A stretch of 61,274 bases of DNA, counting the filler, from Streblomastix strix (Eukaryota): the NCBI GenBank assembly GCA_008636045.1. It is 4 parts of 4 records of this genome, joined end to end, with 100 filler letters (N's around TTAATTAATTAA, not from the genome) between each part and the next. Parts side by side here need not be neighbours in the genome. Positions count along the whole stretch, not along the records: positions 30,698 to 45,936 come from SNRW01001014.1; positions 46,037 to 61,274 come from SNRW01001015.1; 2 more parts are not named here. One strand, 5' to 3'. How positions within the stretch are numbered: the stretch's first letter is position 1; every line of letters starts with the position of its first letter. The notes under the pieces were generated by a model. The model saw only the letters and a list, made by a program, of their open reading frames with translations, did not search any database and was not told the DNA's origin. Position numbers and translations under genes: made by a program. Below are positions 30,698-59,930 of this stretch, piece by piece.

Positions 30698-30796
30698 ACG
30701 ACTTTAATTCCTATGTCATTTATTAAAAAATAAAAATATCAAATTGCGCCAAAATCTAGCAAAAGAAGTTTATTCAGTTTTTTATCTTATCATAAA

Positions 30797-33700
30797 ATGT
30801 CTGAGAAATACAGAATGAGTAAAACTTTGATTTAAAATTTATTTGATTAATTATAAGTTCAATATTTACCTAATTATACATCAGTTTAATTAAGAAATAT
30901 ACTAACTAATGAGTTAATTCATTTACACTATACAGGTCATATAACTATTACAACTGAAATTGTAGCTTTTGTAAATCAAATTGTTGCTGAAAGAAATGGT
31001 TAATAATTGTAATAATTAGAATATGTTGTACAATAATAAGATGAATAATTGCATCCATTAATAAAAGCAGTTGATGAATAGTAATAATAGTTGAATAATG
31101 ATTAACAATAACCCCAATTAGTCAAAAATATTGATGCGATCATAAATGAATTGAATTAGTCTGATAATACTGATGATGATGGTCTATTCAATCCTGATAA
31201 ATACAGAGCTAATTATAAAAAAAATTTGAACAAAGTGGTCGAAGATAGCGTATGTAATATTTGATACAAGCTTAATATTAAATCACTAATTAGATACATT
31301 AAATACAAGAGTCACTTTAAACAATAAATGATATTTTAAGAGAAGAATTTGATTTTGAAGACTAGATTCAACAGCCAATTGAAATTAATGATAATTATAA
31401 GTAATTACTAGCTGAACAATAACTGAGACATTAATAAGAATTAGATTAATAAGAATAGTTACATCAATAAGAGATACAAGAATTAACGGATAAATTAGAG
31501 AAATAAAATAAAGCAGCTATACTAATCCAAAAACATTATCGAAGGCACTTAGGTTAATAATTAATAAAGTAATCAATTAACGCTGCTAAAGTGATTTAAA
31601 GCAAATGGAAGAGACATAAACTATATGAACAGCTATAACAGATACTCATCAATTAAAGATATAAGAGATAGGGTGAAAAGCCATTTAAAATTCTTAGCTA
31701 TTTAGATGCAAAATTAGGTGCTAAAGAATTCAATAGAAGAGTGAAAAAGCTTAATGAAGAATATTATGGATTACATAAGGATCACTTTAATGAACCAAAT
31801 ATAACAAAAACAGAGTAATGAAGTAAAAATAGAGAACTCAATTAGAAAGCCTTCGTAATATTTATACCATAGAACTTATCTGCTTATTATGCAGCATTAG
31901 CTCTGGCACGAAAGAGATTCTTGGATAAGAATGAAGTTAGTATTGATGGACTAGGTGACTCACTATTACTGTCAAAAGGTATCGAAAATAAAGAGCCATA
32001 TATGTAGTACTACTACAATCACTTCTATGACTTATAACAACTGAAAGATAAAATCGACTAGGTGTATGAACTAGAGAAAGCAAAACCTTATAAAGCATAT
32101 ATTAGTTTTGGATCTATATTCTAAAAGAAGTTATAAGTCTATAAGCATTAGTAAACATTAGATGAATATCATTACTCTCGCTCAAGACCAAGTGCTGATG
32201 ATAGTTATAAGACTTTACCTAACACAGTAGTTAGAGATAAGTAAACTATCGACTATTTCAAATAGAAAGCAATTGATCTATTATCGGATTACTAAGACAC
32301 AAATCATGAAGATTCAGCAACACTAAAGGTAGAACTATTTTCGTTTTTGATTATTGTTTATAGATTACCATTAGGTACTAAAATGGATAAAATATGTTAA
32401 CACTTTAATAAAGAAGGTATTACTAGGGATGTAGATTGTGAATATAATATTTGTTGGTTTTTAGTTGCATCATTAGCTTTGCACCCTGATAATATCACTA
32501 CTTGTAGTAGGGTTAGTGATGCTATTAAACTGTTTCTCTAATTCAATGACATTAATCCTTCTAGTAGATTAAATAAGGCTAATAAATAATTACTCGAATC
32601 TTATAAAGGTTTCAATTAAGTAACAGATTTAGAAAAGTATCAACCAATACTCAAGCTAAACGGAATAACATATATGTGTGATGAGGTGAAACAAAAAACA
32701 AATCGTAGTGATGTTGAATAATTTAACAAATTTGAAGAACATATTATTGATAAAGATTATCAAACTGTTAATGTTCTATTAATTCCATTGTCAATTGTTG
32801 ATGAAATTCATGCAATGTATATTAGTGATATTGATAAGGTTATTAACGGAAAGCTCCGTCCACTCAATTGTTAGATGATATTTAATACCAAGAACTAACA
32901 TTAAAAGCGAGACCTTGCTAGACATTTGAAGTATTGTTAAGGTCCTGATACAACAAAATAAGTTAAATTAGATCACTTACCAAAGCCATATTATCCACAT
33001 ATATCAAATAATAAGTTACTATAGAAATTAACTGCGACCAGCAATTCAGATTAGTTAACTCCTACACTTAATTACATTACATTTGATTTTGAAACAGTAG
33101 AGAACATAATTAATGAAGACAATATAATTGCTTAATTAGAACCATTATCTGTAGCATCAGCAGCAACAATAAACGACTAAATTACTACGTTATATTTTGA
33201 TTTATGAAATTGATCTGATTTTATTGAATAATGGATAAGTTAATTGTTTGAAGTTGCTATTAAAGTAAATGAAGCTGATCAATCGAATATACCTGATGTT
33301 ACAATTGAAGATAAGCATTACATTCCATATAAACCCCAAGTGTCTGTCATAGGATTCAATTCTAAAAAATTTGATATGAATTTGTTACTCAAACATTTAA
33401 TTAAAAATAAGATTAAAATTTAATATATGGGATCAACAACATAAGCAAAATAGACCGTAGTATCACATTAAGATTATGATTTTGATTTGAGATTTATTGA
33501 CATATTATCATTCATTCCACCAAACAACACATTAAAGTAATTCGTAGAGAAATTCGGTACTAAAGGTATAAAATTAACCAAGGAAATATTTCCACATGGA
33601 TCATTCAATTATGATAACTATAAATTAATCCTTAGTTAGTCCGAGGCATTCACTAAAGATGATTTCTATGACAAATTTAATAATAAGAATATTAGTGAAG

Positions 33701-35894
33701 AAGATTATGAATAATATGTTAATGATTTCACTAATTTTGAAAATGGATGGGAGTATCTAAAGTATTATAATATCAGGGATGTTACTTGTATGATTAAACC
33801 TATTAGTCATCTTATTCAAATTACACGGGAAGAGAAAGTCGATATGTTAGGATATATGTCATTAGCTCAAATTGCTAGTTAAATTAAATTCAAGTACTGT
33901 TATGGAAAGTTCGATATTAATGCAAGTTATAATATAGTTAATGGATTTGAATAATTCGAAGTTACTAAATACTGGTGGAATAACAAAGTTAAGGGATATA
34001 TTAATCAAGATGAGTTTGCTAAGAGGGATATATCTAATAATGTTAATGAGGATGATATTGATTGGATTAAAGATAAGGTGATTAATGAAACATGTCATCT
34101 ATGCCACAACAAATTCACTAAAGAAAACAAACCCACATTAGATAGAATTGATAATTCAATTGGTCACACAAAAGAGAACTGTCAATTAGCTTGTTAAATA
34201 TGTAATACAGTTAAAGCTGATAAAGATAATGATATTAGTAAATTAAAGATACAATTAATGAAATATGCTATCTATGAACATTTACCTATGACCATTAACA
34301 ATGAGTCTGTATATAATATCTTAAAGGAATGTATGTAAGGTGGTTTGTCTAATGTATACAATTAATGTAATTTGAAAGGTATCGCACACATTAACAAACT
34401 TAGATACAATCATGTAACTAAAACAATAACATCTTATGATACTGAATATATAGTTACTCACATCCTTGATTTAGATTTCAATTCTCTCTATCCAAGTGTA
34501 TTTAGTGGCATATTCAACAAAAATAACCCTTATACAAATTACCGAATATATCAAGCTGGTGGACTAACTAGTTACTACAAATGCACATCAAATAGTTCAA
34601 AATAGAAAGCTCGTGAAATAATTATGAGTGATAATAGATTTAATGACAAAGGGTAGCTATTCTGTGTTCGTATTAAAGGGCATATTGATGAAAAGTGTAT
34701 TAACTCACAAATCAATTTAGCACCAATATGGCGAAAATTAACATACAATAATTCAATTGATAGATAGGAGAATTTATGTACAATAAGATGAAATCATAAG
34801 GATTAACTGTTGATAAACATACTACAAAACTAACTTCATTGCTATCGACACACAATCAATTCATGTGCTTCACTAGTTATATTTTATGGTTCTTGATTGA
34901 CTATTGTAATTTTATTATCGATGACATTGATTCAATATCCCTATTCGATAAACATCTAAGTTTTGAATCATTTGCCTGTACAATGATGAACAAGAGGTAG
35001 GATACAATTAGCCAACACAATGACACGAAATCGTTAGACTACAAATAGATTCTAAATAGTGCTTTTGGAGGAGAAGGATAAAATAATGCTAAATTTGATA
35101 AGATATCATTTAACAATGCTCGACAGGCATCACTCAAACAATTGAAATTGGATCATAAAGCGACAAGAAAATTGAGTGATGATATATACAATCCTGATGG
35201 GAGCCTTAGTAAAGAGGCATAATACATGGTTAGTGAGTCACCTAGATAATTTAAGTGTAACAAGCCTTTACAAGAAGCGGTATTTACATTAGACAATAGC
35301 AAATTTTGGTATCTAAATTTTGTATACAACTTCCTCTATAAGTGTATTGATGTAGATAGGGTTCATTTCTGTAATATGGATACTGACTCAATGTATTTAG
35401 CTATTGCGGGATCATAAATTGAAGGTTATAAGTAAGGATTGAAGTATGTGATTAAAGACTAACTATTCTATGACAATCACTACAAAGAGTGGCTTCCTTT
35501 GGACAATTGTACTATTGCCGAAGAGAAGAAATTATTAGGTCTCACTATTGAATCATTGGGTGAAAATATTGTCTGTCTTGCACCAAAATGTTATAGTCTA
35601 TACAATGGAATCGAACAAAATGATGACTTAGTTTCGTTAGTGAATCGAATGAAAGGAGTTAGTGAGAAGAAGGTTAATTTAACAACTAATGATTATATTA
35701 AATGCTTGAATGACGGATGTAACATCAATGAGACAACAAATAATTTATAGATGAAAATGGGAGTAATTTCAATGATAAGTATGGAAAAGTCAGCACTAAC
35801 AGGGATTCATAATAAGATGATTGTATTAGCCAATGGATGTTGTGCTCCATTTATGAATGGGATTAATACAGATCATTACTTAATTGAATAATGA
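30797..35894 (+). pseudogene. polB: Protein-primed family B DNA polymerase with long N-terminal extension; in-frame TGAs (31819, ~33205, ~33211) and frameshifts (~31260-31320, ~34760)
   Basis: ExoI YITFDFET, ExoII VIGFNSKKFD, ExoIII YNIRDV, motif A LDLDFNSLYPS, motif B KQILNSAFG, motif C CNMDTDS, LAPKCY, MKGV; TGA at 35892-35894. Confidence 0.93.
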
Positions 35895-35968
35895 TATCAC
35901 TATTTTTGATGATAAGTGTGTTATAGGAATTTTTAAATATTAATCCACATCATAAGTGCATCACCAAT

Positions 35969-36110: not shown

Positions 36111-38345
36111 AATGCTTTAGTTGTAAAAGTCATTTGGCGCGGAGATTATGGTTACAAATAGCGCGGCGGAATTAGTAGACTCTGGTGCTGCCCATATATA
36201 TTATTATTGCCCGCAGAATAATTAACTGACCCATCTATAGCGCCATTATTTGCACCAATCCCTGCAATAACCTACACATTGAAAGTTAAAGTATTTCCAT
36301 CAGCACATATACGCAATCCTCTAGTTGTATCACTTGAATCGAATGCCAATGATATTACAAAACCTAATGGACTATTAACGTAATTACTTGGTGGTGAAAA
36401 TATTTACCATTATCCTGCTATAACACCAGTGTTAGATGTTCTATTACATCCCAAGAAAATCGCAGATCCACCAATACTTTCTACTGTTCTTGATATTCTC
36501 AGACAGTCATCATAATTACTTGCTATAGGATTTATTTACTTATTACCTGAATCAACACCTGCAAATGTTTTTTTTACCTGTAATTGTTTAATCAGTCCCA
36601 ATATCAACGAATCAATTGCAATTAAATGTTAATGCTTATCCGTCAGGTGATATTTATAATCCTCTAATATTATCACCAACTTAAGATGCCACTGCAATTA
36701 CTAAACCATAAGGATTAATTATAGCCGTATTTGGTGGTGTAAATATTGCCCATTATCCTTCAGTAAGTCCAGTGTTATATGCTCTAATACATCCTAACTA
36801 AATTGATGAATTATCTGAATTTTCACCAGATCTAGCTATTCTCAAACCTTCATCATAACTAGTTGCTGTAGGATTAATTTACATACTATCATATATATTT
36901 GGAAATAATTAATTTATACTACTATATCCTGTAGGAAATGCTGATTATGCATCAGTAGTTAATATATCAGTAACATCACTCTAAAAAGCACTTATATCAG
37001 TTTATGATATGAATATATTATAAGTAAAATCATCAATTCTGCCCCATAATTCACCATATCTGTTTATACCAGTTCCAAAATATATTATCCATGCACTATT
37101 CAAACCAGACGATAACGATGGGGTAAACTTATACTAACAATTATCTATTCCTATATCTTAAGTCCAATGTTTATTAAATTTTATTTTTCCAAATCCTGTT
37201 CTAGTATTTATTTTGAATTCTATTGAATTATCAAAAATAACGTTTAAAGCAATAAACATAAATAATTTAATATACAGGGATTATTCAATAACTTGATATA
37301 ATTTACTTGCTAAAGCAACTTTTTTAGTTGTCCCATCAGCTAGTAATAAATCATTATCTGTTCCTGCTGTTTTAATAAATTTAGTTGCAGTTATATTTCC
37401 ATAATAAGTTAATTGTTATGGATGAATATGGTCTTGTCTTGAATAATATGCTGATGAACCATTATTTCCAACTTCATTAACGATTGGAATATTTGATGTA
37501 TTAGTTTCTACATTAATTGGATGTGAATGATCGTTTCTAGCATAATAATTAGTTATACCAACTGATCCACTAGTACTATCTTGTGGGGGTAATAAAGTTG
37601 TTATATTTAGGGGATTAGAATGATTGCTTCTTGCATAATAATTTGTTGAACCAACAGATCCACTTGCAGAATCACTAAATGGAATAGTAGTTGTAATATT
37701 TAATGGATGAACATGATCTACACGTGAATATTCTGTACTAATTCCAGCTGTTGCTTTACCATCAGATAATGGAGTTGCACTACTTGCAGGCGTTACTTGA
37801 TCAGGTAATATATCTCCACTATTATACCATGCTGCATCATACATCCATACTGTTCCACTTTCAGCACTAAATGAAAAATCTTCATTTGCAGAATTAGGAA
37901 AATTTTATATATCTGTATTCAATAAATAATATCCTTGGAAATGTGTTTATCTTGATAAGTCCATATTATTGGTTTCAATATCATTTTTTATATCAGTGAT
38001 ATCCTATTCAGTTGTTCCAATTGATTTTTATAATAAATTCATTTCATTAATCAACTAATTAATCAATGCAATAAAATCAAAATTAATCACTTTCAAATTT
38101 TTTATCGTTAGCAATCCATTAGGTTCTATTTTTAATGCGTAATTTGATGTCATTCCATCAACGATTTAATTGTTAGCGGTGTAGATTAATTCATTGTTAT
38201 TATTTATGAATAATTGATACTCTTCATTTGATATCATTCCTCCACTAGAATTACCTCGTTTCTAATATTGAATATAGTAAGCAATATCGTTAGTGATAAG
38301 TTATCTAACTGTATGGTTTTACTATTATGATAGTGAATTGTTCAT
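36098..38345 (-). pseudogene. Tail-fibre-like protein 1: coiled coil, four YxRxDHxHP repeats, duplicated beta-rich C-terminal domain; one TGA and one homopolymer frameshift near 36570-36610
   Basis: YSRVDHVHP, YARSNHSNP, YARNDHSHP, YSRQDHIHP; FIKTAGTDNDLLLADGTTK; DQTITGKKTF; two INP.A..YD..LRI.R...LGC...GQW.IF.PP...RGL.I..DG..LTFN units. Confidence 0.75.
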
Positions 38346-38365
38346 TTTAATAAAAATAAATTACG

Positions 38366-38575
38366 TCAATTACGCTTATTTACCAATCGATCAACAGCAC
38401 CTGCAAGATTAGCTCCTGCACCTAGTGCGCCTCCAATTTCTAGGTGAATCATTCCAACAGAGCCCGATATTGTTGACAAAACTTTATGTAATGCTGGTGC
38501 AACCCATTAAGCTGCTTTCTTAACGCCACAAAATATTTTCGACCCAAAATTTGCTATTCCAGAGAAGAAACCCAT
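38366..38575 (-). CDS. 69-aa amphipathic Gly/Ala-rich peptide, candidate membrane-penetration protein (adenovirus pVI-like N-terminus)
   Basis: Intact ORF MGFFSGIANFGSKIFCGVKKAAQWVAPALHKVLSTISGSVGMIHLEIGGALGAGANLAGAVDRLVNKRN-TGA between the two fibre-like genes; function is inferred. Confidence 0.7.
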
Positions 38576-38619: not shown

Positions 38620-40046
38620 CATTAATTTTTGTTTCAATGAAATGTCATTCAAGTCTAGTGATTATCTTGGACGATTAGCAAAAATGCAACATTCTGATTA
38701 TGTTAGAGGATATATGTAACTTGGGGAAGTTCTAAAATCCCCTTCTATATATCCACAATCATTTGAAATATCAAAGCAAAATTTCTTTGATTCTCCAATT
38801 ACTGAACTAACATCTAGTGGAGTTAAATATACTAGAGCACCATTAGGAGCAAGAGGTAAATCAGCATATTCAATGGTTCAAACTTGTTAGGTAAATTGGA
38901 CAACTGCAATCCCAGCAAATATATTAGCAATATAATTCAATTTGTCCCGAAATTAATAAAATATGTACCATTAATTTTCACATTAAATGGTGAGAGTAAA
39001 TTTATAAAAGAATTGGAATTTATAATAATTTACCCTTACTAATTAATTTTCTATGATCCGAGCAAAAGCGGCATGCCAAACAATATTCATTTAAAATAAC
39101 TTTTTATTGTACATAACATTTAAAAAATTTGGGTAACTATAGATGTCCGCTGAGAACCTCCCAAATGCTACATGGTTACACGATAAGAAAAATGAGGTAT
39201 AAAATCAGCATCAACGTATCCCACTATGACAGGAATGCTAGTCGAACCACCTTATGAGACCCAACGAAGATACGCACTAATATATACCATACCACTACTA
39301 TGTAAAAGTAAAGACTCTTAGCTTAATCCAACAACAAAATCCCCCGCATGAAACACACCCGATTTCGCCGTTATTGGCACAATAATTTAGTTATTAAATT
39401 TTAATGTGGTACAATCGAAATCAATAATTAGGCCCTTACAATCATATGCTTATTCTTCTTATTTTTATATTCTAAACTATGATGAAGTTGAACCAACTTT
39501 CTATACATTATCTCTATTCGTAGGGTAAATATTACAACCAGTGAGTACAAAGCTAACCCAATTCGTTTCATTTTTCATTAATCTTATTCCTTAATCTAAT
39601 TTACTATCACTCGGTTCAAAAATAAATTACCCAAGCGCATGAGGATATTATTTTGGTAAAAAATCGCCCTATGTCTGATGTATCACCATTAGCTGGTTGA
39701 ATTTAGTTATTTGTTCCACATTATTTAATAATTTTATCCTCGTAATTCGGCAATAAAAATGTTTTTACTCCATGAATAAACTAGTAAGTATATTTATTAA
39801 CAAAATCGATAGAATTCCTAAAGAATTAACTCAAATAATTAAAGTATTTTATTATCTCATTATCAATAACTAATAATAATGAGTTACGTCCTTAATTTAA
39901 TTTTATTATTCTTCCTATTATTATATTATTTTACTATCCTATTCTTACTAATTAATCTATTCATCTTCATCAATTATATCTAAATCGCTTAATTATTATT
40001 CCATTTTTATTATAAAAATAATAGGTTATTCATTCATAATTTCCAT
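38620..40046 (-). pseudogene. Fibre-like protein 2 (acidic N-terminal coil plus beta-rich domain related to the fibre-1 C-terminus), degraded
   Basis: DQGIRLMKNETNWVSFVLTGCN...KGLIIDFDCTTLKFNNQ parallels GLRIARS..SIQLGC..RGLQI..DG..LTFN of fibre 1; several frameshifts. Confidence 0.55.
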
Positions 40047-40059
40047 TTCTTAATCTATC

Positions 40060-40606
40060 AATATATAAATTAATCTTTTTTTTGGTTTATATCACACACA
40101 TTAACAATATCATACGGTAAATAAGAGTATTAATGAACTAATAACTTTCTAAATTTAAGACCATTATGGAAATATACATTAAAATCCTAATTAAAACTAT
40201 ACCCTTCTAGTTCATGACTATTATATATCAATAATGATTAACTTCCCTCAGGTAACTCATCAAAATATTCATATTTAATTCTACAACCAACTTTATTTTT
40301 CTAGTTGTCGGAACGAGATACCCAACGTAAGTTCTCAATTCTATTATCTAATCTATTATGGTTAATATGATCAACTTCAAGAAGATTATTGGGATTTGGA
40401 ATAAATTATTATGCAATCAATCTATGAAAAAGGTATTATTCGTTATTCATTTTGATATAATAATATTTTGATGAATTATTATAACTAACCTTAGGAATAA
40501 AATCATTGGCTATTCTTTTAATTGTATGAGGTTCATTGGTCAAAATAACAAAATTTCGATTTTCCTTTAAAGTTTTCCAATTGTTTTACTCTACTATTTA
40601 TTTGAC
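40060..40606 (-). pseudogene. HNH (HNH_3-type) homing endonuclease
   Basis: HRLIAQQFIPNPNNLLEVDHINHNRLDNRIENLRWVSRSDNQKNK; start codon not evident. Confidence 0.88.
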
Positions 40607-40626: not shown

Positions 40627-41310
40627 TCAAAAATCTTTATCTGTAATTTCTACTTCAGGTGCATCACTTAAACGTACAAAATCACAATTCACAAGATACA
40701 GTTTCTCAATAGAATTATAGAGAACATTGTCGAGTACTTTAACTGATACGTTCTTAATCAAAATATCCATCACACGAATCAAATCATTCTTTTTATATGA
40801 TTTACCTATGCATGAATGGGATCGCATCAATGGTTCTTCTAATACTATTTCAATATCATCTTCATTTTCTTAAGTGATTAGTGATCAAAGTTTAATAAAA
40901 TTTTCTGATGAGAATATAGAATCATCTCCTCTTTTTCTTATAGTTACCGTTTTCCGTAGGCTATCGATAATGAATTTCATTACGGACAATTAAGGGTGTG
41001 AAAAATAAATATTTTTAACAACTTCGTCATGTTCAACTTATGCAGTAATTCTATCTACTTGTTTATATTTATCTTTATTATATTTACTCTTAAACTTAGT
41101 AATTTTTTATTCTGTTAGGATCAATTATTCAGATGTTTCTGGAATAATTTCATTTTCAGTTTAAATTATTTTTTCTTAGGTTATTTCATCAACAGTTGGC
41201 ATTGATTTAGTCCTGCTAATTGCATCATCGATCAATTACAATCTTATTTTATCTTCATCCGTTAGTTCTTTATATTTAATCTCTGACATTTATTTTTTGG
41301 ATTTTGACAT
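40627..41310 (-). pseudogene. Element ORF B homologue
   Basis: ATG at 41310; EEPLMR...DILIKNVSVKVLDNVLYNSIEKLYLVNCDFVRLSD; one TGA and a frameshift near 40870-40890. Confidence 0.75.
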
Positions 41311-41408
41311 GTGAATTTAGTTTCTTTTTATGCCCTTTATCATTATCTTTATTTAAAAATACAGTCATTATCGGTTTATTCAAAACCCATTTTGCCAAAA
41401 AATGGAAC

Positions 41409-41731
41409 TGCGAATTAGGGATAATTCGCAATTTTTATACACAAAAAATACTAAAAACTTTATTTTAATTAAAAAAATTCATTTATAAAGTAATAATATA
41501 AATAAAAATTAATAAATTTATTATAAATCTGAGTTTTTTTAAAAAAAAAATTATTTAAATTTTTTGGTATATTTTTATTTGTTTCAGTTTTATAAAATCA
41601 AACAAAATATTCTATTTGCAAATTTAATGCAAATTTATTATAAATTGTTATTTAATTTTTAAAAAAATAGAATTTATAAGGTTTTTATAAAAATTTGCGG
41701 CGAATTACATACTTAGTTACCGCGAATTAAG
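41409..41731. promoter_or_regulatory. GCGAATTA motifs (one perfect hairpin plus two direct copies) in the AT-rich divergent spacer between ORF B and ORF A
   Basis: TGCGAATTA-GGGA-TAATTCGCA at 41409-41430; GCGAATTA again near 41700 and 41723. Regulatory role is inferred. Confidence 0.4.
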
Positions 41732-41845
41732 TGAAAAAATTTATGCAAAATTTTTAAAAAAATAGATCATTTAGATTGAATACTGTGAATTAAATCTACT
41801 GTGATTTAACAGATATATGAATTAATCGATATTGACTGTATTCAA

Positions 41846-42472
41846 ATGGACTTACAGCACGCATTAAAGAATTTGACTGAAAACGGAACATATATTGAAT
41901 ACTTTGATAATGGATATGTAATCCAAATTAATAAAGATATTAAAGTATTCGAAGAAGGAAAGAAGACTCTTAAAAAATTAAGATAAACATAAAAGAATAA
42001 ATTACTGTTATAAGCACGTGGAGGAGGAATTGAACAAAAGAAAAAAGTTTAAAAATATCCTTAAAAATAAATTGATGAAGGTGAAGATTTTATATCTTAT
42101 GAATAATAGGAAGATTAAAATGAAAGCGATAAAACATCAATAAGCGAAGTAAGGGAAAAACCATTAAAAAAAAAAGTTCGAAAAATAGTAGTAAAAACAT
42201 CAAAAACTCCATAAATTAATTATACTAATCCTCAACTTGATTTGGAAGAACTAATTAGGTTGAGAACTGAAAATTCACTTATTAATCAATATCATTAAGA
42301 TGCTGTTAAACAAATAGAGAAATATAAATAAAAAGTTAAACGATATATGCAACCCAAATAGACTATTGAAAAAGAATAAGTAATTGAATAAATTTAAGAT
42401 CCACATGAATGCTAAGAAGAACCTGCATAGTATGAAGAATATGATAAAGATATTAATTTTGATTTATATTGA
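41846..42472 (+). CDS. Element ORF A, intact 208-aa Lys/Glu-rich protein of unknown function
   Basis: ATG to TGA open in code 6 (MDLQHALKNLTENGTYIEYFDNGY...DLEELIRLRTENS...FDLY); homologues in contigs 2 and 4. Confidence 0.75.
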
Positions 42473-42500
42473 TCAATTATTTTTTGTTCCAATTTTAAAA

Positions 42501-42692
42501 ATGGATTAGTCACGGTATGATTATCTTAAACAGTAAGAAACATAACTATTAAACGAATATAAACAAAAGTCTAAAGAAATAGTAGATTTTGAAATAGAAC
42601 TAAAGAAAAAATAAGTACGACATCTATATGTTTTGCTTAGCCATATACGAGATTTAATACGTATAGCTGAGGCTTATCTTAATAAAAAATGA
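42501..42692 (+). CDS. 63-aa small helical protein, unknown
   Basis: ATG to TGA open in code 6, 28 nt after ORF A (MDQSRYDYLKQQETQLLNEYK...). Confidence 0.5.
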
Positions 42693-46940: not shown

Positions 46941-47425
46941 GGATGCAGCACTCAGTCATTATGTCATTTACTTTATTAATGACATGATTAAATATCGCTT
47001 AATTAACGTAAACTACGACGTGCAACTCATTCTAGAAATAATTCTAGATAAACGACCGAAAATTAGCCTGAAAAACTACTTCTAACGAAGTTTTCAGAGA
47101 TTGATTTGCTTCTTAGCAAGAAAATTTACGTCTGACAACAGAAACTACAAAATAATCTCGAAAATCACGTCTTAAACTTAAATATGATTTTCGCTAACTA
47201 CATAATAAGAAACATAAATTTCGAAAAATTAAAAAAAAAGAATAAAATAAGATGCGCGAGCAGATGAATCATGAAAATTATTTATCTTGGATGTATCATT
47301 ATGAATAAAATTTAGACGAGAATTCTCGTAAAATTCTTAGGTAAAATCAAGTTAAAATTCAAGATCTCATCGAAATGTATTGTCAATTTAATTTATAATT
47401 ATTCCCTTTTATCGATTTTGAGTTT

Positions 47426-50400
47426 ATGATATTATCTAAACCGCTAAATATAAACTTGTTTTCGCAAATAATTAATGAGTCTAGTGGCAGATTCAATGGA
47501 TTAAAATTTGATTTTCTTAATTTAACTGATGAAATTGTTTTATATGTTAACTTTTTTCATAATAAGAATCGTTCGTTAAAAAATATTCACAATTTCATTG
47601 AATATCCGTATATTCATGAAAAATGAAAGTTATTTAAATGATTTTTTTTGACTTTGGAGTTGGTATTGAACGAAAAGAAATACCTAAAAACATGAAATAA
47701 TTATTAAAAAACAGAGACTGTGCAAGCATGATGCCAAAAAATATATAACTTTTGCATAAAATCCAATATATTAACGGACTCGACAAAATTACTTCCAGAA
47801 ATAAATTTCCTGATAATAATTTCAGTCAAATATATTCACCAATTGTTCTCTTTGATAGAAATTCAATCGACGTTTTCAAAGAATATCTACGTTCATCAAT
47901 TATGTTTATGCAAGAATTCAGATAATAAACTGATACAAAGGAATTAATTGTAGCCATATTTTCGATGAAAATTACATATCACAGATTATCTTTTCCAAGT
48001 AAAAACATGGAAGAATTGATTAAAATTCATATGAAAAGGAATATTATCAAATATATTCGTTCGAATGATAATTATAACATCTGTTTCTGGTACTATTTAA
48101 CATGTGTGACTATGCTTGACTCAACAGGAATTAAAATTGATAGATATTAATGATTCATGGAAGGAAAACTTTTGCTATTTTCCTTTTACGGAATTTCAGA
48201 ACCATATTAACGTAAGTTTCTCTAAGAATATTCAGGATTTAATTGAAATGAAGCAAATTAGGATACTAAAAAATTTAATATAAATATCAATTGTTATGGG
48301 TACATCGGTGAAGGATTTAAATATGATATTTTAAAGAAATAAATATCAAAATCAAATTTCATATCCTGATCCTTAAGCTGAAAGTCGAAAACCTTATAAT
48401 ATACTCTTATTAAATGATGACATTAGTAGTCAATACTTAATGTATATCATAAACGACGACGTACTGTTTAGTTTTCTTATACGTTCTATCTGCAATAATC
48501 ATGCGATCTATGCTAAGGATGAAAATAAACATGCGTAATGCAAAATGAACACTCACATTAAAGAATGCATGATGAAATTTGGAAATCAAAATAAACGAGT
48601 TAAATAAGAAAAGTTTTAAAAACCATTTGTATCGCACATAGCATCGAATCAAACTTATAAATTTTTACTTTCTCAAAATCGATTATAAGAATATAACCCA
48701 ACATAATATATATTTATTTTTTATTTCGCACTATGATTCAATAAGAAAATGATTTAAAATATCCTGTTCTCAAACTTATTTCTGTTGCATCAGCAATTAA
48801 AACTAAATCAGGAATCAAAACATGTTATTTTGACTGAAGCTAATCGAATTTTGTAGATTTATGGCTTGATCACATTTTCACTGAAGCTAATTAAGATAAA
48901 TTTGAAAATAATTATCTTGATGAGATACATTAACGTTATAAAATTCCAATAAATTGATTAGATTAGTTGAAAACATTATTTATACTGATATTCAGAAATA
49001 TTCAATTACATATCTATGAAATTGCAGATTTAATTGGACAAAAATCATCTTTTAAATATTCTATTATAAAATCAACAGAAAAATATCTTTAAATCATGAA
49101 AAAATAAGCTTAAAACGTAAATTAAATTCGTCTCAAGATTCTTGATGCAAAGAACTATTTAGTTGACGAAATCTCATTTTAGAAGATCATAAATGATTTA
49201 GACACTCTTTAGAGCAACAATGAAGTTGGTACACTTTCTCACACCGCTATTCCTGATTGTTAAATAATGCTACCAGATAGCCTCACTGAATTTGACAAAG
49301 ATGCTTAATTTCATCAAGAACAAACAAAACCAATGATAAACTCCATCGATTTCTTAATAAATCTATATTTCAAAAACAAAATTAACTTAGCGGCGAACAC
49401 ATCACAGGCAAAACTTACTTGTCATGATTAATATTCTCATGTTTATAAAAATTTTTACATTGATGCATATTATTCTCCTTAAAACGACGATTTTTCATTT
49501 AATTTAACTGAAAAATAATAGAAATATAAAGTGGAATCTTATAAAGAATAAGACAAACTAAAAAAGCGACGTACGGATCACAATGTATCTGATTCTGATT
49601 ATTACTATTTTCATGATTTGTTCATTTCTTCATCCAGTGGTCTGTATAAGTCCAGATTTAATTACAAAAATCTGCCAGTTTTAGATAGAATAGATAACTC
49701 AAAAATCTCATACAAAAATAAATGTAAAACCATGTTTTCTTTACTGAAATAAATATGCATCAAACAAAGATATAGATTTTTGTTGGCTCATGATATAATT
49801 ACGTAAGTTTGCATAGCTAAATCATCTTACAATAACTATTTCTGACTAAGATGTTTGCAAAATCTTGCGGAACAATATGATTGGAGGAAATTCATACGTT
49901 ATGCGTAGAGAAAATATATATAAATTAATGCCAATTAACAAATTAAAGTATAATTTTTCAGATAAAACAGTTCATTTCATTGATTTTCCTTACATTATCT
50001 CGCATATAACATGTCTTGATTCAATAGCTTTTATCTCTCAGTAAAGAGTTTAAATTAACACATTCCGATTCCATACGCAAATCATAAAATATATATGCCA
50101 GGAGATGTAATTTCAATAGTTAAGGATGAATAATGTGCAAAATAAATCATCCATCATGAATATAGATTCTCATGCGATTAAGATATCTTTGAAAACACGG
50201 TACAATTATTCATTGCAATTGTTAAAGCTCATATTCCAGAAGAATTTATCAATGAATTTATAGATTTTCCTGTAATTTGGCGAAATCTGAAAATAACAAT
50301 GAATAAGCAGACTGTCGGGGAATATACTTACAAAAATATGGTAAAATATCACATAATATATGATAAAAAAGAATTAATATTACTTATGTTGTTATCCAGA

Positions 50401-51386
50401 TCCCTAAATTTATAACTTTTAATAATTATTTTTTATTTTTTCTTATAGATTGTTGTCGTCTTGCAATTGGTGAAACACAACAAGTCATTACATTCAATAA
50501 AAATATACCATTTCACGAATTCGTTAATAAAACTCATAAACTTAGGTATAATGCACTGTCTACAGGTAATAAAAATCAAAAATTATTTTATAAAATAAAA
50601 TTGAATGTTTCATTTAGTTATGATGTACTAAATACTGAGAAATTTCAAGATATCAGGATATGTAATAGATAAAAACTTGGGCAGTGCCAAGTGCTTAACA
50701 CATTTTTTTCTGAAAAATATTTATCTAACAATTTATCGGTTGTCGAGTTAGAAAAGAAGAAATATTCATGTTCAATGCCGTTACAAGCTGTTTATTTCGT
50801 GAAGGTCAATTCAAAATATTTTTATCTTAACATATTTTATAATTTTCTTGTCCGATGTTTTGATATGAATAAAATACATGTTTTTTACAGAGATACCGAC
50901 AATTTATTCTTAGGAATTGTTGATAAAAATTAGCTAATATTGAACTATATATTATGAAATAATTGTATCTGTAATTTTTTCCATCTACAAATGTTTCACT
51001 AACTCTTATTTTTGATTAAATTTAAGGAAAAAATGAAACTACTTCGTTGGACTATCGAACATCAAGTAAAAGTATGTTTTACTTTAGCTCCTAAGTGTTA
51101 TTAATTAGATATATATGACAAATGTGAAATTAAGAAGTTATAGGGGGTTGATCAATTATAAAATCGAAATATATCCATAAATTTCATTATTAAAGTTTTT
51201 TAAGTTGATTGTCACTTGAAAGTAACATAGAAATCTGTAACTCAAAAATAAACATTAATATCTGAAATAATATCAAATCATATTGGTATCAGCTGAATTA
51301 ATTTAAAAACAATAGTTCTAAGAAACCAATTGAGTACATCATTAATTTATGGTATTAATTCTAATTCTTTTTTCATCAACTCTTGA
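47426..51386 (+). pseudogene. polB: Protein-primed PolB, divergent and heavily frameshifted
   Basis: YNICFWY, LDRIDNS insert, IDFPVIWRNL, KIKLNVSFSYD (motif B), YRDTDNL (motif C), LAPKCY; collinear with 30797-35894. Confidence 0.85.
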
Positions 51387-51505: not shown

Positions 51506-52690
51506 ATGAATTAAATGTTATATTAGGAATTCACTAAAAATTTGAATAAATTTATTTTAGGAAAATTAAATTAAAGAATCATTGATAAATTGTATAAATA
51601 ATACGTTTAACTACATGATTTATCTGGTGTACAAAGACTTAAACAAAATGTGTAAATATAAACTCTAACAGCAGCTTAGAAAATCTCGAAATAAACATTG
51701 ACATATCTATTTAAACCAAAAATAGGATAATTTAAGAAAACTCATGAAATATCTCCGGAGACTGCGAAGCTCATCGTCACACACGTGGATAAAACTAAAA
51801 GAAATTCCTAAAAATTATTAAATAAATCCATTATCTAAGTTGAATCGTCCTTATTATTCTCCGCACTTCGGATCTTGGGAAATTGATTTGGTATTTTCTA
51901 TGAATTAATATATAATTCGTGTAAATTAAATATATCCTCACTGCATAAATATTAACATAAAATATCTGATTGTTTTCCTATTAAGAGAAAAATCAGCAGG
52001 ATAAGTCAAGAATATGTTTTAAATATTAGTTAAGAATCATAATGTCACGAGTATTAGAGGCGATGCAGAGAAATAATTTAACTGAAATTAACTGAAAACA
52101 TTCTGAAAGTACAATAATATTTCCTCGATTTTTTCAAATTCCAAATTCATAGATCATAATAGAGTTGTCGATTCAGTTATCAGAACAATTCGAAATGGTT
52201 TTGGTTACGATTCAGATAAATCTGGTGAAAAAGATTAAATGTAATAAATGGTAAATATGTATAACCAGACTCCTCATCATGCATATTAAAATAAATTTAC
52301 ACCATAGTAAGCTAATGATAATCATGATATAGAATGAATTAGCATAAGATAATAATAAAATAAGCTCTTCGAAATCAAAAAATAACAATAAAACAAAGGC
52401 TTCTCTCATTCGTTCCGGGAAATTTTCTTATGATTCATCTTGATTAATCTAAAACAGGACATCAATTCGTTATTTATAGAAGAAATTTCAATAAATTTGC
52501 CGAATTCTTAAGATATTCCTATGGAAATGTGGTTGTAAAGTTATTAAAGCCTTGATCTAACATAAATATCATAGAATTACCTATGTAATATTGTAAATTT
52601 GTTACAAAAGATATTAGCAAATTGGATCAAAAACATAAAAAATATTCCAAAATGTTAGATCTGACAAAATGTAAAAATAAATTTTAATGA
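51506..52690 (+). pseudogene. Retroviral-type (rve) integrase of the element
   Basis: RPYYSPHFGSWEIDLVF, TSIRGDAE, HNRVVDSVIRTIRN, YNQTPH motifs; frameshifted. Confidence 0.75.
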
Positions 52691-53054: not shown

Positions 53055-53059
53055 AAATA

Positions 53060-53643
53060 GGTTTTAGGCATGTATTTTTTACCGAATGAAGTTTGGCGAC
53101 GAGGAATGCAGTCAACAACTACGTTACTTGGCATAAATGCTCACCATAAATTTGTTTCATTAAATCGTATTTCAGGAATCTCGTCTTTTGATTCAGGAAC
53201 TTATCTATGGTTATTTTAAAATTATTTCATTGATACTTGCTTTAGAGTTTTGAATGGTTTTTCATCAATTAACTTTTGTTCTTCTTCGAGATTATCCATT
53301 ATTTATTCTTCTATTTCGTGACGACAAATTTTCGAAGTTTCTTACTGATATTTACGACCATAATATAAAATTTCATCAATCGCATCCTCTTATTCATATT
53401 CAATTTTTTTTATATTCTTTTTGGATTATTCACTTAGTTAATGCTCTAAAGAGTACTTTTACCACCACCACAAGCTTACAAAACATGATTAGTTTATTAT
53501 GCTTAATTTAATGTTTTTGCTGATTTCTTTCCTTCTTCATATACTTTTATCTTATCCTTTGCTTTCGTGATATATCCATCATCGAAATATTGAATTGAAG
53601 TTCCATTTTCTATGAGATATTTAAGTGCTGAAGTCTAATTCAT
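53060..53643 (-). pseudogene. Element ORF A homologue
   Basis: MNQTSALKYLIENGTSIQYFDDGYITKAKDKIKVYEEGKK matches the N-terminus of the 41846 ORF. Confidence 0.75.
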
Positions 53644-53680
53644 TTGATGATTCCTGTTCAATTTTATTTAACCACAAAAT

Positions 53681-54475
53681 ATGTCAATTGTACAAACAAA
53701 TTAGATTATATTACTTAAAAACGTACATGCGAGTATTGTTAAAAAAGAATTATCAAAAGAAGATAAAGTCAAATTAGAAGCCATTGATGATGCGATAACA
53801 AATGGTTTTAGGAAAGCAATTTAGGATCTATCGTTGCAAAATCCTTGGAAAAACTTTAGCCTATATCTTCTAATGAATTCACACAAAATGTTCAGCAACA
53901 AAGTTGCTTGATCAGTTCATCGATATGAACTCCTCAGTAATACAGGAAATTCATCAGCGCTGAACAGGAATAATTCTAAAGAAATATTTAAACGAATCAT
54001 CGATGAAGATAACCTTACAACAATCGTAAATATTAAAAAATTTCATGTTAAACTGCATAAGTAGAACCTAAATAAGTCATTAAGGAGATATATTTATCCC
54101 AGCACCACTTAGAAATTTGGAAATTTATCATTGACACGATTTGGAGATGTGTATATTCTTGTAATAAAGGCGAAGATTTCATATTTAACTCAGATAATTA
54201 TATCAAGCTATGGTTTTTGATAACATAAAAAGATGTGAATGACATAGAACTTGTTTTGAAAGAACCGCTGATGAGATATAACAGTTGTACAACTAAGTAA
54301 TACAAAAAAGAAAGAAATCGTAAAAATTATGGATATACTAATTAAAAAAAATATCTCAATTTCTAACATTGACAGCGTGTTATGAAATAGAATTGAGAAA
54401 TTATATCGGGTAAATAAGGATTTCGTTAGATTATCAGATAAATTGGAGAATGATATCGGATGTGATGATTTATGA
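53681..54475 (+). pseudogene. Element ORF B homologue
   Basis: ATG 37 nt from the ORF A start; DDAITNGF, YIKLW, EPLMR, IEKLYRVNKDFVRLSD motifs. Confidence 0.75.
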
Positions 54476-54546
54476 GGCTGCCCTAGCTCGCCGCAACGAA
54501 GTGGATATCAATATCCTAACGAAATTGTTTATTTTTGTTGAAAATC

Positions 54547-55610
54547 ACGGAAGAATCGCCAATAAGTGATCTTGAATCACCGTCAGAAGAAGAATTAAAT
54601 TCAATACAATAAGAATACGAGAAAATCAAAAAATAATGGTCCGAAATATAATCGTTACATAAATTATAATAATAAATTACGTAATAGATAGATTCAGAAA
54701 TTACTAAATATTTTACTTATTTTAGCCAATTCATCAAGAAATATCGGTAAAAAGATGTTGATTTATCAAATTTGGAAATTCTCGACACAGAATAAACAAT
54801 AACTGCAAATATGTTATTTAAATAACTTACAGCATAAAAATTTATTGTTTAATAAAGAACAAATTAGGAAATATTGCTTACAAATGGAAATTTAATGAAT
54901 CATTTTAATTTTTGTCCTAATTTTGATGCAGAATATGCTAACAGAATAAGAATCGCTAGAAATAATGTAAAAAACTGGAGTTTATCATAAATCAAATATA
55001 TATCTAAGTTGTTGCAATAAAGCTGATTCAAGAACTATCGGTGGATAATTGTAAATAGCTGCTTAAATTCTTTATATATTAAATATTTCTAATTGTAAAT
55101 GGTTATAACAAGGAAAATTGGATTAAATATGAATTTAGATACAATTATATTTAATGTTTGATCCATATATCCTTCTCCATATTTAACGAATTATTTTAGT
55201 TCAATAATTTTGAAAACAAATTGTAAATTTCGATCTGAATTTCTTAATTAATTTATGTATTAATATAGTAATATGGAATTCATTAATATGGTTGAAACAA
55301 TATGAGAAACATCTTTTACTTAGAAAATTATTATAATTAATTTGCATATGAATATAAGACCGTAATTGTAAGAATAATTCGTTCCATAATAGAAGATATC
55401 TCTTTCATTGGTTCATATACAACCAATATTTTCCTAAGAATTAATGGTTCAGATATAAATTATGATTGGTAAGTGTGGAATAATTCATATATTTCATGGG
55501 CTACTGGAAATTCGATAATTATTAATGCTTCATATTGCATAAATTCAGCCTGAGTGACTTCTATTGTTGATAGACTTCGTGTAGATCTTTAAATTAAGTA
55601 ATTTTAAATA
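54547..55610 (+). pseudogene. Fibre-like protein 2 homologue, degraded
   Basis: Starts EESPISDLESPSEEE (cf. 30497 MEEEAQQITDLEDPSEEE); EYANRIRIARNN...IGGQ resembles the fibre beta-domain; same position after ORF B. Confidence 0.45.
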
Positions 55611-55866: not shown

Positions 55867-57044
55867 ATGATTTATGTAAATTATTTAGGAATTGATAAGA
55901 AAATTATAGAAACTATGAAATTTAGACCGTATAATATTGAATTAATAATTAATAATATGATATTCATTTTTCATTTCATAAATGACTTTTGTGGAGATAT
56001 AATCAGTTACATTCACTGATAATTCTATGTTAGAAGAATACAAAGCCAAACCACTGACAAGAAATTAATTTTTATTAATTAACGATAATCATTATATCAT
56101 CGGAACGGTTGGTTCTGGAAAATATCTTTGTAATGCAAGCCGATTATAATATAAAAACAGCAAATCAACCCATTTATTTTATATTTCTCTAATTTCGGTG
56201 CTGATGAGACGATGGCATTGAACTTAAACTCCAAAAACATCGTGTAAACCAATATTACTTATTATGAGGTAATGTTTTTCTAACTGAGATTTGATGAAAT
56301 AAAGTATGTAGTAAAAGAAATCTATACATTTTAGAAATTATGCGAAATAAATACATAATTCAAATCAGATTTTAAACAATGAATGAAAGTTAGAATACTT
56401 ATATAATATTCTATTAAATATAATCCTGTAAGAATCGCTAATTCATCATCAGCACAACAATTGGAAAAACCTAAGAATTATGCTAGACGAATTGCTGAAA
56501 TATTTCGCTAAGAATATACAGAGATTATAACTAAATTTAGTGTTCCAACGATAATAATGCGGTTTATAGTCTCTGCAATGATATGTAATGTATATTTCGA
56601 AAGGAAAATTCAGATTTCGTATGATGACAATGATTCAGAGTTAAAAATAATGAAAATTCTTGTACTAATTCACATTGAACTGTTGAATTCATTATTAATT
56701 TTCGATTATATATAGGATGTAATGCAGATATTTAACTAATTTCATCAGTATAATCCAGAAAAATTACATATTTAGTTCCATGTTCACGACACAGCAACAA
56801 TACTGTGTTTTTCGTTGCTAAACGACCAGGTTACTTATTAAAAACTGCAAGAATCTTATCACATATTATGAGTTTAGGTGTAAATCTTAGCGAAAGTGAT
56901 TTGATGCGGACATATTAAGAGAATTCTATTTATAATCTTGATTTTGATGAATTAAAGCCACTGTGTGGTACCCTTAACAAATTTGAATTCATTGTTCTTA
57001 ATAAATGGTTATCAAAATTCGAATTATTGAAGAACGATCGCTGA
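55867..57044 (+). pseudogene. A32-like (FtsK/HerA) DNA-packaging ATPase
   Basis: Walker A YIIGTVGSGK (~56095-56121), Walker B-like SLLIFD (~56690), SRHSNNTVFFVA (RH motif, ~56785); frameshifted. Confidence 0.78.
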
Positions 57045-57815
57045 ATAATGTGTGTAATATTTATTTTTGTGTTTCATGGAAATGAATTTGGCATAAACGC
57101 TTAATTATCGATATACATAAGTAATTCGCTAAATTATTTAATTTCATTTCTAATATTTCATACAATTTCAGAAAAAATCATCAAGTTCCAACAGTTAATT
57201 ATTGGGAAATATGTATTAATTAACAATAGATAAATAAAGCATTTTAATTTTCGCATCTATAGATAATGTCTTGAATTTTGCAATGAAACTTGAAATCAAC
57301 GGTTTAATGACATTAAAAAATATAGAATTATTAAATAATGATTTTTTTGGAAAAATATCAACTTTTGAATAAGAAATTAATGTAATTTTAAAATTTTTCA
57401 GTAAATTTACGTAAGATATTGGAGATATTTAATAATAATTTATTGAAATTCACGATGAATTAGCTAGATAACCTCATTTTAGAGGTAATTATTTATTGAA
57501 TGCTGAGATACAAGCATTAGATAAATCTACTAACGGAGATTTTGCATTTCCAGCTTAAAGTGGAATAGTGTGGATGTATGAAACTAATTGGTTTGACAGT
57601 GCATAAATAGTTCCTGATTAAGTTACTCTAATATCTGATGCACTATCTATTGCTGATGGTGTAAATGGAACTAAAACTAATATTGGCGGAACTGCCGGAA
57701 TAAGTACAGAATATAGTCATGCAGATCATAGTTATCCAAAAAATGTATAAACGAATGATTCAATTAAACCAAATGAATCATCAGCAACTGGAGATATAAG
57801 ATCTTCAAATAAATA

Positions 57816-59344
57816 CACTTCGAAAAAAATTTATTTGAGACGGTTAAATGTTTTATTTATTTAATGTATATATATAATTAATATATTATATTATTTTGTT
57901 TTAATAATATATAAAATATATTATTATATATATGTATAATATATTATTTTAAATTACTTACAGATCTTTTTTTGCAATTTTTCTGGAATGTATAAAAAAA
58001 ATAAATAAATAGTATATATTTGAGAAAATCATTCGAATGTTTATTTATAGATAAATAATGGAACATGAGTAATTTAGTATTTAATCCACTCCCCGTTGAC
58101 CTTTAACACTTTTATCAGTCGATTTGGTACAGACATAACTACTGTCTTGCGTTTTTCAGCGTCCAGTTTAGGCCATTCACGAAGAATTGCTTCTCGCAAC
58201 GTCTCTCTATCATTGTAGGACAATGCATCTCTATATACTGCTCTTGATATCTCAGTCCACCAATTCTCTATCGGACTGAGATCAGGTAACTTTGATGGGG
58301 CGTTAACATAATCAATTTCGTTTTCTTTTAGGAACTTGATTGTACTTCGAGCTACATGAATTGGTGCATCATCCTGATAAAGTTGGAATTTCACACCAGA
58401 GAACTTGGTTCTTGCTTCATCGAACAATATCTTTATAGCCTTCTGACAGTCTTCTGCTTTCCATTTTGTATCGATAAACTGAATGTTTGATTGGAAGTCT
58501 CGAGAATTTTCAGCGAAAATCATCACAGACTGCTTAAAATTCTTTGATCGTTGTTCAACCGGAGGAGAAACATCAGGAATATACCAACGCTTCAGCAAAC
58601 CTTCTGGACCGTAAAAATTGAACTTCTTTTCATCGACGGAAATTCTGACTTCGTAGTTTGGTGATTTCCGAATTCATTCCTCAGCGAACTCGACTCTGGC
58701 ATCTTTGTGCTTTGCACTCAAGTGGAATGGACGTTTTTCGCTATCGAACTCAGCTCCAATCTCACGCACGGCCTTTTTAAGAGTAGTCTCGCACAGCTTC
58801 GACCGTAATTCACGTTTCAATTCCGAAACATTTTTCAGCCTTTTCTTTTTCAGCACTCGCTTTATTCTTTCCTTCAAATTTGCTGTTAATGAAGTAGCTC
58901 CACCAAGACGCTTCACTATTCTACGCTTTTTCTGCCCTAATCGTATGATTCATGTATTGCAAAACAGAATTCTTCGCAACTTTTGTTCCACGAGCAATTT
59001 GACGCACTGTCTTGCCGGATTTTCGCAATGTCCTTATCTATTGTTGAATCTTGAGAGATAACAACCTAGGCATTTATTTATGAAACTCTAATAGTGGCTA
59101 GGTCTTGGGTACGTGATATGATTCGACCCTTAAATATCCCAGATATTTTTTAAAAATTTTCAACCGTTCACTGAATTTTTATTTTAAAATTAAATTTTAT
59201 CTACTATAATTATATAGTTAAGTTTTATACATTAAAAATAATATTTTATTTACTATATAAAAATTTTATTTTTTTATTATATTCACTCATATATGTCTAT
59301 ATATTTATTAAATATTTGTCTTAAATAATTAATTTAAATAAGTG
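57816..59344 (-). mobile_element. Tc1-family DNA transposon (1529 bp) with TA target-site duplication and imperfect TIRs
   Basis: TA|CACTT...TTATTTGAGAC at left and GTCTTAAATAA...AAGTG|TA at right; removing it restores the TAT codon of the fibre gene. Confidence 0.9.
58074..59073 (-). pseudogene. Tc1 DD34E transposase with one frameshift (~58940) and one TGA (58674)
   Basis: HTH GKTVRQIARGTKVAKNSV; SVDEKKFN, QDDAPIH, PDLSPIENWW with D-34-E spacing; ends GEWIKY-TAA. Confidence 0.92.
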
Positions 59345-59930
59345 TATGCCAAAGAAGATCATTAACATCCAATGTAATGCGATGACACGAAAAAACCTAT
59401 AAAAGATACTGAATTTGGAGAACCAGGAACTTTATTTAAATATCCAAGATTAGATCATACACATGCAATAAATATAGAAACTAACGATTCATTCATTCCA
59501 AAAGTTAATACAATTGCTGAAAATTACGGTTCAGCTGTCTCATACGCTAATTAAGATCACATTCATCCATAATAATTAACTTTTGATGGTAATACCACAG
59601 CAATCAGCTATATTAAATCAGTTGGAACAGCTAACGAATTATTATTAGCAAATGAAACAACTAAGCTAGTTGTTTTAGCAATTAGAGCGGATTACATATC
59701 AAAATCTGGAAAAAACATTTAATTATGTACCTTCAACATAATGATATAGAATAATTGTATATCTGTAGAATTTATATATTAAAATTGTTATGCTTAATTT
59801 TCAATAAGATTATATCTCTCAGGTCTTTTTGGATTATGTCCAAATATTTAATTTTAATATTGGAAATTTTGAAAATTTTAGAAAAATTAAAAAAAAGACA
59901 AATAACCATTATTTTATATTCATAATCTTT

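Follow-up and report, generated by a model that had tools for sequence, protein, structure and literature searches.

Broken integrated copies of a probable Polinton-type virus lineage in Streblomastix strix, with a predicted capsid gene remnant, putative attachment fibres and a candidate entry peptide

Are the related gene blocks found in one stretch of the genome of Streblomastix strix, a protist of the termite gut, the remains of a virus able to build particles and to enter cells, or those of a transposon that does neither? The window, i.e., the whole stretch of DNA analysed (61,274 nucleotides, assembly GCA_008636045.1), is composed of four contigs, located at positions 1-15255 (contig 1), 15356-30597 (contig 2), 30698-45936 (contig 3), and 46037-61274 (contig 4), with linkers of the form N44-TTAATTAATTAA-N44 between them. 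A first-pass annotation had proposed that three of these contigs carry copies of an abundant Polinton-like virus with an attachment-and-entry gene module, in which neither a major capsid gene nor a protease gene could be recognised. The analysis reported here leads us to regard it as probable, with good confidence, that these loci derive from a DNA virus lineage of Polinton type in S. strix, integrated and since broken, whose intact members would possess a capsid, fibres and, likely, an entry peptide. The virion-forming reading is strengthened by a predicted double jelly-roll capsid protein and by the genome-wide linkage of its gene to a fibre gene, whose remains in contig 3 belong to the following block (HMM, hidden Markov model; aa, amino acids):

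36150..38345, minus strand: fibre 1, contig 3 copy, putative trimeric attachment fibre, frameshifted near 36600 (family matches, alignment, repeats)
38366..38575, minus strand: gene for a cationic amphipathic peptide of 69 aa, candidate membrane-active entry peptide (hydrophobic moment, joins in fibre gene models, match to a metagenome locus)
38642..38960, plus strand: 5' remnant, about 100 of about 650 codons, of a predicted double jelly-roll major capsid protein gene (family matches, HMM, structural model)
39087..40030, minus strand: fibre 2, contig 3 copy, broken (C-terminal repeat in common with fibre 1; 30% identity to the repeats of the fibre-1 family, E 1e-8)

The capsid remnant is placed between the peptide gene and fibre 2, head-to-head with the former. 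Among S. strix proteins it has 53 matches, 360-669 aa long, with up to 88% identity over the first ~100 residues; one of them is named "Major capsid protein" by UniRef, and the HMM of this family finds the remnant (independent E-value 2e-53) as its sole significant match in the whole window. Since the contigs of sequencing run X2 depart from the window at 38941, the point at which most family members cease to match, other copies continue differently from there on. Several S. strix models are full-length (633-669 aa), and one of them, P0030, was modelled with AlphaFold2 on a 58-sequence alignment including divergent relatives, with a predicted local distance difference test (pLDDT) score of 79 and a predicted template modelling (TM) score of 0.85; a model built from S. 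strix sequences only reached a pLDDT of 38 and had no Foldseek match at E 0.001. The structure search that the first-pass annotation had suggested was fruitful, as the P0030 model matches double jelly-roll capsid proteins (EhV-201, 3.5e-12; PBCV-1, 6.7e-12; mavirus, 2.9e-11; Sputnik, 6.4e-10) and, in BFVD, the capsids of virophages, adomaviruses and adintoviruses (E from 2e-14). The family is thus a predicted double jelly-roll major capsid protein family, whose first ~100 codons are what the window retains, and a major capsid gene can be recognised after all. An alternative gene at 38452-39204 on the minus strand was rejected: its one match is an antisense gene model, the real gene lying on the plus strand.

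At the sequence level the capsid has no match in PDB or Pfam, and no relatives were found in viral_contigs or in prokaryote genomes. A profile search gave 208 matches; of the 150 that were listed, 136 share 45% identity or more with the S. strix references, and nine are long relatives at 24-31% identity, three of them on contigs of 20-22 kb. In a quick tree, unrooted and carrying a long-branch warning, 11 S. strix rows form one long branch (Shimodaira-Hasegawa-like approximate likelihood ratio test, 100) among 11 others.

Fibre 1 is organised as an N-terminal coiled coil followed by His-x-His repeats, a variable middle domain, and two copies of a C-terminal beta-rich repeat. It has 276 matches; all the 120 listed are from S. 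strix, three of these being named "Tail fiber protein" by UniRef, and three to four [DN]HxH repeats occur in 98 of the 120. Among the copies the N-terminus is strongly conserved, while the middle and head/terminal domains vary blockwise. In phage fibres that are trimeric, metal is known to be bound by HxH pairs. By analogy, fibre 1 would likely be a trimer that binds metal and serves in attachment to a receptor. Of the two fibre-like genes proposed earlier, both could be located in contigs 3 and 4, and it is their architecture that points to their role. The peptide, whose charge is +5 to +6, is included in 45 of the 120 listed fibre 1 gene models, in most of them at 73-93% identity; since the gene caller joins the two in these models, the peptide usually lies just upstream of fibre 1. 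That S. strix is the host is supported by the gene model P0073, which carries its name and matches both the contig 3 peptide and the fibre C-terminus at 100%, and by the listed capsid and fibre 1 homologues, which are all from this species.

The linkage between capsid and fibre was assessed with the 120 listed of the 276 fibre matches: for nine of the 53 capsid models, a fibre-1 model from this list is no more than three locus tags away, the contigs of the two being equally long, and shifting the tags yielded a mean of 0.93 and a maximum of 5 in 10,000 trials. A metagenome scan returned three loci. One of them, L002, is a contig of 13.5 kb that uses the standard code, with TAA and TAG as stops, and carries in this order a capsid gene (27% identical to P0030), a 69-aa peptide gene, an ATPase gene, three ORFs (open reading frames) of ~200 aa, and a 701-aa penton candidate; the opposite strand has a fibre-like ORF some 6 kb away from the peptide. 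The L002 capsid, peptide and ATPase match the remnants of the window with E-values of 1e-5, 1e-6 and 6e-8, respectively, the peptides sharing 34.5% identity. Since related genes are present in a standard-code locus, the module is older than S. strix; and since capsid and peptide both match there, the peptide is encoded by a separate gene that accompanies the capsid gene, and is not an exon of the fibre. For the 701-aa ORF, which has no match in the window, the Atlas gives V18-19 as a lead (0.91, 10% of members). Two further observations were made on this locus: the three ~200-aa ORFs (5380-7293), in tandem between the ATPase and the penton candidate, look paralogous by eye and have no Pfam match, and direct repeats of ~105-120 bp occur at its left end (64-363), possibly a terminus.

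How far the three copies resemble each other can be seen from their remaining features (pPolB, Polinton-type family B DNA polymerase).

Contig 2:
29036..29688, minus strand: ORF B, broken (38% identity to ORF B of contig 3, E 8e-22)
29775..30452, plus strand: ORF A, open, 225 aa (matches the copies of contigs 3 and 4)
30497..30597, plus strand: fibre 2, truncated after its start by the contig end (62% identity with 54550-54636 of contig 4 over 29 aa)

Contig 3:
30698..31821, plus strand: two ORFs upstream of pPolB, the second with an IQ-like motif (high contig depth)
31822..35894, plus strand: pPolB, in three reading frames (motifs; PHROG)
40058..40450, minus strand: HNH endonuclease (Pfam HNH_3, E 7.5e-15)
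40627..41343, minus strand: ORF A, with one internal TGA (protein comparison with the other copies)
41360..41838, no strand: AT-rich stretch of 479 bp (18% GC) between ORF A and ORF B, absent from the other copies
41846..42692, plus strand: ORF B and a short ORF C, with the element end near 42700-43050 (comparison; depth at host level by 43398)

Contig 4:
47250..51380, plus strand: pPolB, heavily broken (28% identity to pPolB of contig 3, E 1e-31)
51744..52334, plus strand: probable rve-type integrase, broken (motif reading only)
53128..54475, both strands: ORF B (minus) and ORF A (plus), broken (protein comparison)
54472..55300, plus strand: fibre 2, broken, of weak homology (short block, position)
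55997..57041, plus strand: remnant of a packaging-type ATPase with Walker A (matches the intact ATPase of L002, E 6e-8 and 3e-5)
57088..59773, plus strand: fibre 1 of another subtype, split by a Tc1/mariner insertion of ~1.5 kb (alignment of P0058; DDE_3)

ORF A and ORF B are common to contigs 2, 3 and 4. The DNA identity is 71-73% between contigs 2 and 4 and 66-72% between contigs 2 and 3, and the ORF A protein of contig 2 matches those of contigs 4 and 3 with E-values of 1e-46 and 2e-42. Third-position changes are in excess among these copies: in one block of 53 codons they account for 24 of 33 differences between contigs 2 and 4 and for 31 of 57 between contigs 2 and 3, and in a second block for 48 of 102. 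The presence of divergent related copies in three of the four contigs is thereby borne out. Pfam and PHROG searches with ORF A of contig 2 gave no match, and ORF A has no relatives in viral_contigs.

The proposed conservation of gene order holds in part. The series ORF B and ORF A (divergent), fibre 2, fibre 1 is found in contigs 3 and 4, and its start in contig 2. In contig 3, two ORFs and pPolB (plus strand) are followed by fibre 1, the peptide, fibre 2, HNH and ORF A (all on the minus strand) and by ORF B and ORF C (plus strand), the left end being cut by the contig end; in contig 4, the order is pPolB, probable integrase, ORF B (minus strand), ORF A, fibre 2, ATPase and fibre 1 (plus strand). 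Hence, pPolB is at the fibre-1 end in the former and at the ORF-B end in the latter, the fibres enclose the capsid remnant and the peptide in contig 3 but the ATPase in contig 4, and the two fibre 1 genes are of different subtypes: the copies do not form a single family with a single gene order. On contig 4, P0058 aligns with residues 1-168 at 57283-57816 and 168-295 at 59345-59734, and the insert between them has a DDE_3 match (E 2e-10). What the fibre 2 copies of contigs 3 and 4 share, in addition to their position, is one block of 18 aa that scores 26.9 bits, against 21.2 for the highest of 35 control windows; a single-frame comparison of the two was not significant. The joint 41359->41839, skipping the AT-rich stretch, was seen in all three sequencing runs. 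Two tandem 68-bp repeats, 88% identical, lie at 35965-36100, in the interval where pPolB and fibre 1 converge.

As far as the Polinton hallmark genes are concerned, the polymerase is recognisable by its motifs, whereas the integrase and the ATPase are less so. The pPolB of contig 3 shows, by pattern, Exo I-III and Pol A-C-like motifs (DFE, FN..FD, YN..D, DFNSLYPS, K...NS.FG, DTDS), and an HNH/endonuclease VII-like domain is embedded between its exonuclease and palm at 34010-34240 on the plus strand (PHROG endonuclease VII, E 2e-11); with the broken copy of contig 4, the presence of pPolB is confirmed. The rve integrase is a motif-like reading, and the A32-like ATPase claimed earlier stands as a broken Walker A remnant whose intact L002 relative has weak P-loop and terminase profile matches only. 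The use of TAA and TAG as glutamine codons was also corroborated: they make up 43-86% of the glutamine codons in nine element ORFs vs. 64-70% in two host genes of the window, which read them in the same way.

The element is very common, as had been stated. On contig 3, the summed contig depth, which is not a copy number, is 1,700-59,000 on the element vs. 27-77 on the flank in run X1 (possibly the source sample), and 10-234 vs. 0-8 in run X2, from a second study; one 357-nt contig covers the right edge of the element (42689-43045) without differences. The copies of the window are broken by frameshifts, TGA stops, the loss of most of the capsid gene (~85% in contig 3, where the polymerase is also frameshifted) and, in fibre 1 of contig 4, a transposon, and cannot make virions themselves.

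For an intact element, the following scheme can be envisaged. Its DNA would be replicated by pPolB and inserted, likely, by the rve integrase; the predicted double jelly-roll protein would build an icosahedral shell, into which the ATPase would likely pack the DNA; attachment would likely occur through the trimeric fibres, and the host membrane would likely be breached by the 69-aa amphipathic peptide, whose most likely role is membrane penetration on entry. The host, the code, the multiple copies, their breaks, the linkage of capsid, peptide and fibre and, as a prediction, the fold of a full-length capsid protein are what the data show; the identity of the integrase, the entry role of the peptide and the production of virions by intact members are inferred.

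A number of observations weigh against this scheme. Fibre 1 has no significant match in Pfam, PHROGs or phage genomes, and in PDB it retrieves coiled coils only. The TM-scores of P0030 to known capsids are modest (0.36-0.43 by query length). The family profile search detected no capsid remnant in contig 4, and none of the 14 fibre models of contig 4 type carries the peptide or is among the nine capsid-linked pairs, so that the capsid link is shown only for the contig 3 subtype. No Pfam match was obtained for PolB with pPolB, and neither a Pfam nor a PHROG match for the integrase. No terminal inverted repeats and no 5-6 bp target duplication were found in the window, where the element ends are cut or decayed, and no single jelly-roll penton was found there. 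Adintoviruses carry a protease, adenain; a maturation cysteine protease had no Pfam match among 45 ORFs of the window, in agreement with the first-pass annotation, or among 16 ORFs of L002, all of them partial copies. L002, in the part covered, shows neither a polymerase nor an integrase. Finally, the amphipathicity of the contig 3 peptide is modest (hydrophobic moment 0.54, reached by 3.5% of shuffles), and no significant family match for the peptide emerged from profile, PDB and phage searches; what stands of the lytic-type peptide claimed earlier is a cationic amphipathic 69-aa gene adjoining capsid and fibre, with a tentatively assigned function.

The alternative that survives best, a possible one although we do not favour it, accepts the same virus and assigns the peptide to another task, as a capsid cement, a genome tether or an exit factor. 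The positive charge of the peptide and its position beside the capsid gene in both lineages would suit such a function, and the C-terminal tail of the mavirus capsid has been proposed both to tether DNA and to rupture membranes (PMC6048507). A strong amphipathic helix is, on the other hand, predicted for the peptides of L002 and of a second metagenome locus, L003 (0.2% of shuffles), and in the Atlas cecropin is the nearest cluster with a name (0.76), which is no more than a lead. When PDB is searched with residues 1-25 of the L002 peptide, just two rows are retrieved, both the helix of adenovirus protein VI with the shared LW..IKNFGS; with E-values of 2 and 4.4, this match is not significant, and with a three-sequence peptide profile the protein VI rows rank sixth and seventh of eight. 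The comparison with Pfam MCPVI gave no match.

We consider unlikely a second alternative, according to which the element is now a capsid-less or helper-dependent transposon, its virion genes are decaying relics, and any particles would be supplied by the Trichomonas-like capsid lineage. In its favour, every copy in the window is broken, contig 4 is devoid of a capsid remnant, many S. strix capsid models are fragments, and the genome is rich in a second type of capsid; this is countered by the full-length capsid models mentioned above and by the variation of the fibres, in which the peptide and the fibre N-termini are strongly conserved and the middle and head vary in blocks, as expected of receptor-binding proteins. 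A bolder reading, quite doubtful in our opinion, is that of a second undescribed, protease-less Polinton-type capsid clade of S. strix and standard-code hosts, in which the free 69-aa lytic gene would be a minimal homologue of protein VI, ancestral to adenovirus entry; neither significant homology to protein VI nor a ~250-aa precursor was found. That the breaks are short-read assembly artefacts and the loci intact proviruses is very improbable: such artefacts are reported for high-copy elements (Bellas 2023, PMC10120064) and at some listed positions the base of the window is seen in no run contig, but elsewhere it is present at about single-copy depth (29/2318 at 32064, 20/9883 at 34174), and errors of base calling would explain neither the 1.6-kb loss from the capsid gene nor the Tc1 insertion.

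The integrated virus copies preferred here lie among other features. On contig 2, which opens with a 127-bp perfect inverted repeat, the segment 19159-24079 (minus strand) holds two tandem decayed copies, spaced by ~1.9 kb, of a primase-like and D5/SF3-helicase-like gene (DUF5906, E 2.7e-10); they probably belong to a further endogenous element, distinct from the Polinton copy at 28960. A reverse transcriptase fragment (46207-47187, plus strand; RVT_1, E 9e-22) is directly upstream of the contig 4 element, and a second mariner-type transposase remnant, identified by sequence reading and with no Pfam match, is found at 59931-61021 (minus strand); contig 4 ends in a 106-bp inverted repeat (60925-61030 / 61169-61274), which may be an assembly or amplification artefact. 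Contig 3 also bears a host gene at single-copy depth (44606-45781, plus strand); its product has a 4Fe-4S dicluster domain and a hydrophobic tail at the C-terminus, and by eye the N-terminus looks flavodoxin-like. On contig 1, a host ORF exceeding 3,600 aa and, after it, a 710-aa ORF that overlaps it occupy 3-13065 (plus strand); a 127-bp direct repeat is also present (1-127 / 574-700).

Whether the family matches a lineage already described has a divided answer. Host-code endogenous viruses of S. strix have been published: Bellas 2023 (PMC10120064) counts 820 capsid hits over 152 Mb, with viral sequence at ~11% of the assembly; these viruses use the host code and fall in a Metamonada (MMN) group. 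The copies described here resemble the MMN Maverick-Polinton/Polinton-like viruses (PLVs) of that work in their host, in TAA/TAG as glutamine, in high copy number and in a double jelly-roll capsid. They differ in the capsid itself: the one S. strix capsid in the confirmation tables of that work is Trichomonas-like and of 562 aa, with relatives ~32% identical to Trichomonas vaginalis capsids, while the present family is of ~650 aa. Six locus tags, three accessions and four motifs of the latter were not found in the part of the supplement of PMC10120064 examined, nor was "Fiber" or "fibre" in the part of its supplements examined; conversely, four short motifs of the 562-aa capsid are absent from the 150 listed profile matches and from the 53 homologues, and DUF4106 has no match in 23 family members. 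The family is thus likely a second capsid clade in S. strix, set apart by motifs and length, and, judging by eye from a similar strand layout, likely a distant MMN branch. The estimate of ~11% viral sequence may omit this second abundant capsid lineage.

The polymerase of contig 3 has an inserted HNH domain, as has the pPolB2 of Polintons of oomycetes and terrestrial nematodes (10.1101/2023.08.22.554363), a type which is commonest in Metamonada. This insert was called unique to the pPolB2 of these two groups; its occurrence in contig 3 may represent an extension of the pPolB2 clade or an independent gain. Phage-like fibres are common in PLVs, including those of T. vaginalis, and have been read as independent means of attachment and entry (PMC12220804); these fibres have collagen, PTR, laminin G or S74 domains, none of which is matched by fibre 1, with its HxH repeats and unnamed beta-rich repeat. 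The conserved fibre N-terminus, together with blockwise variation of middle and head over hundreds of copies, looks like a record of receptor change within one host.

Abundant host-code Polintons in S. strix, PLV fibres and adintovirus membrane-active peptides are already in print, whereas the capsid lineage and the peptide-fibre block appear undescribed within the literature searched; that search, mainly beyond subscription papers, yielded no paper on a Polinton membrane-penetrating peptide or an oxymonad Polinton capsid. The entry of protist Polinton-type viruses is little understood, and the 69-aa peptide, in a capsid-peptide-fibre block conserved between a recoded host and standard-code relatives, is a small and testable candidate for it. 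Adintoviruses and MELD viruses, the former being animal-tropic unlike the S. strix element, likewise possess fibre genes and membrane-active accessory genes (cupiennin-like, PLA2X, GasderminX), with a gene labelled "VI" in a MELD virus figure legend (PMC8502044). A parallel in terms of form is offered by adenovirus protein VI and by the C-terminal helix of the mavirus capsid (PMC6048507), in which a short amphipathic helix is proposed or shown to rupture membranes; the protein VI helix is part of a ~250-aa precursor and that of mavirus belongs to a protease-cut capsid tail, while the peptide described here is the 69-aa product of a free gene.

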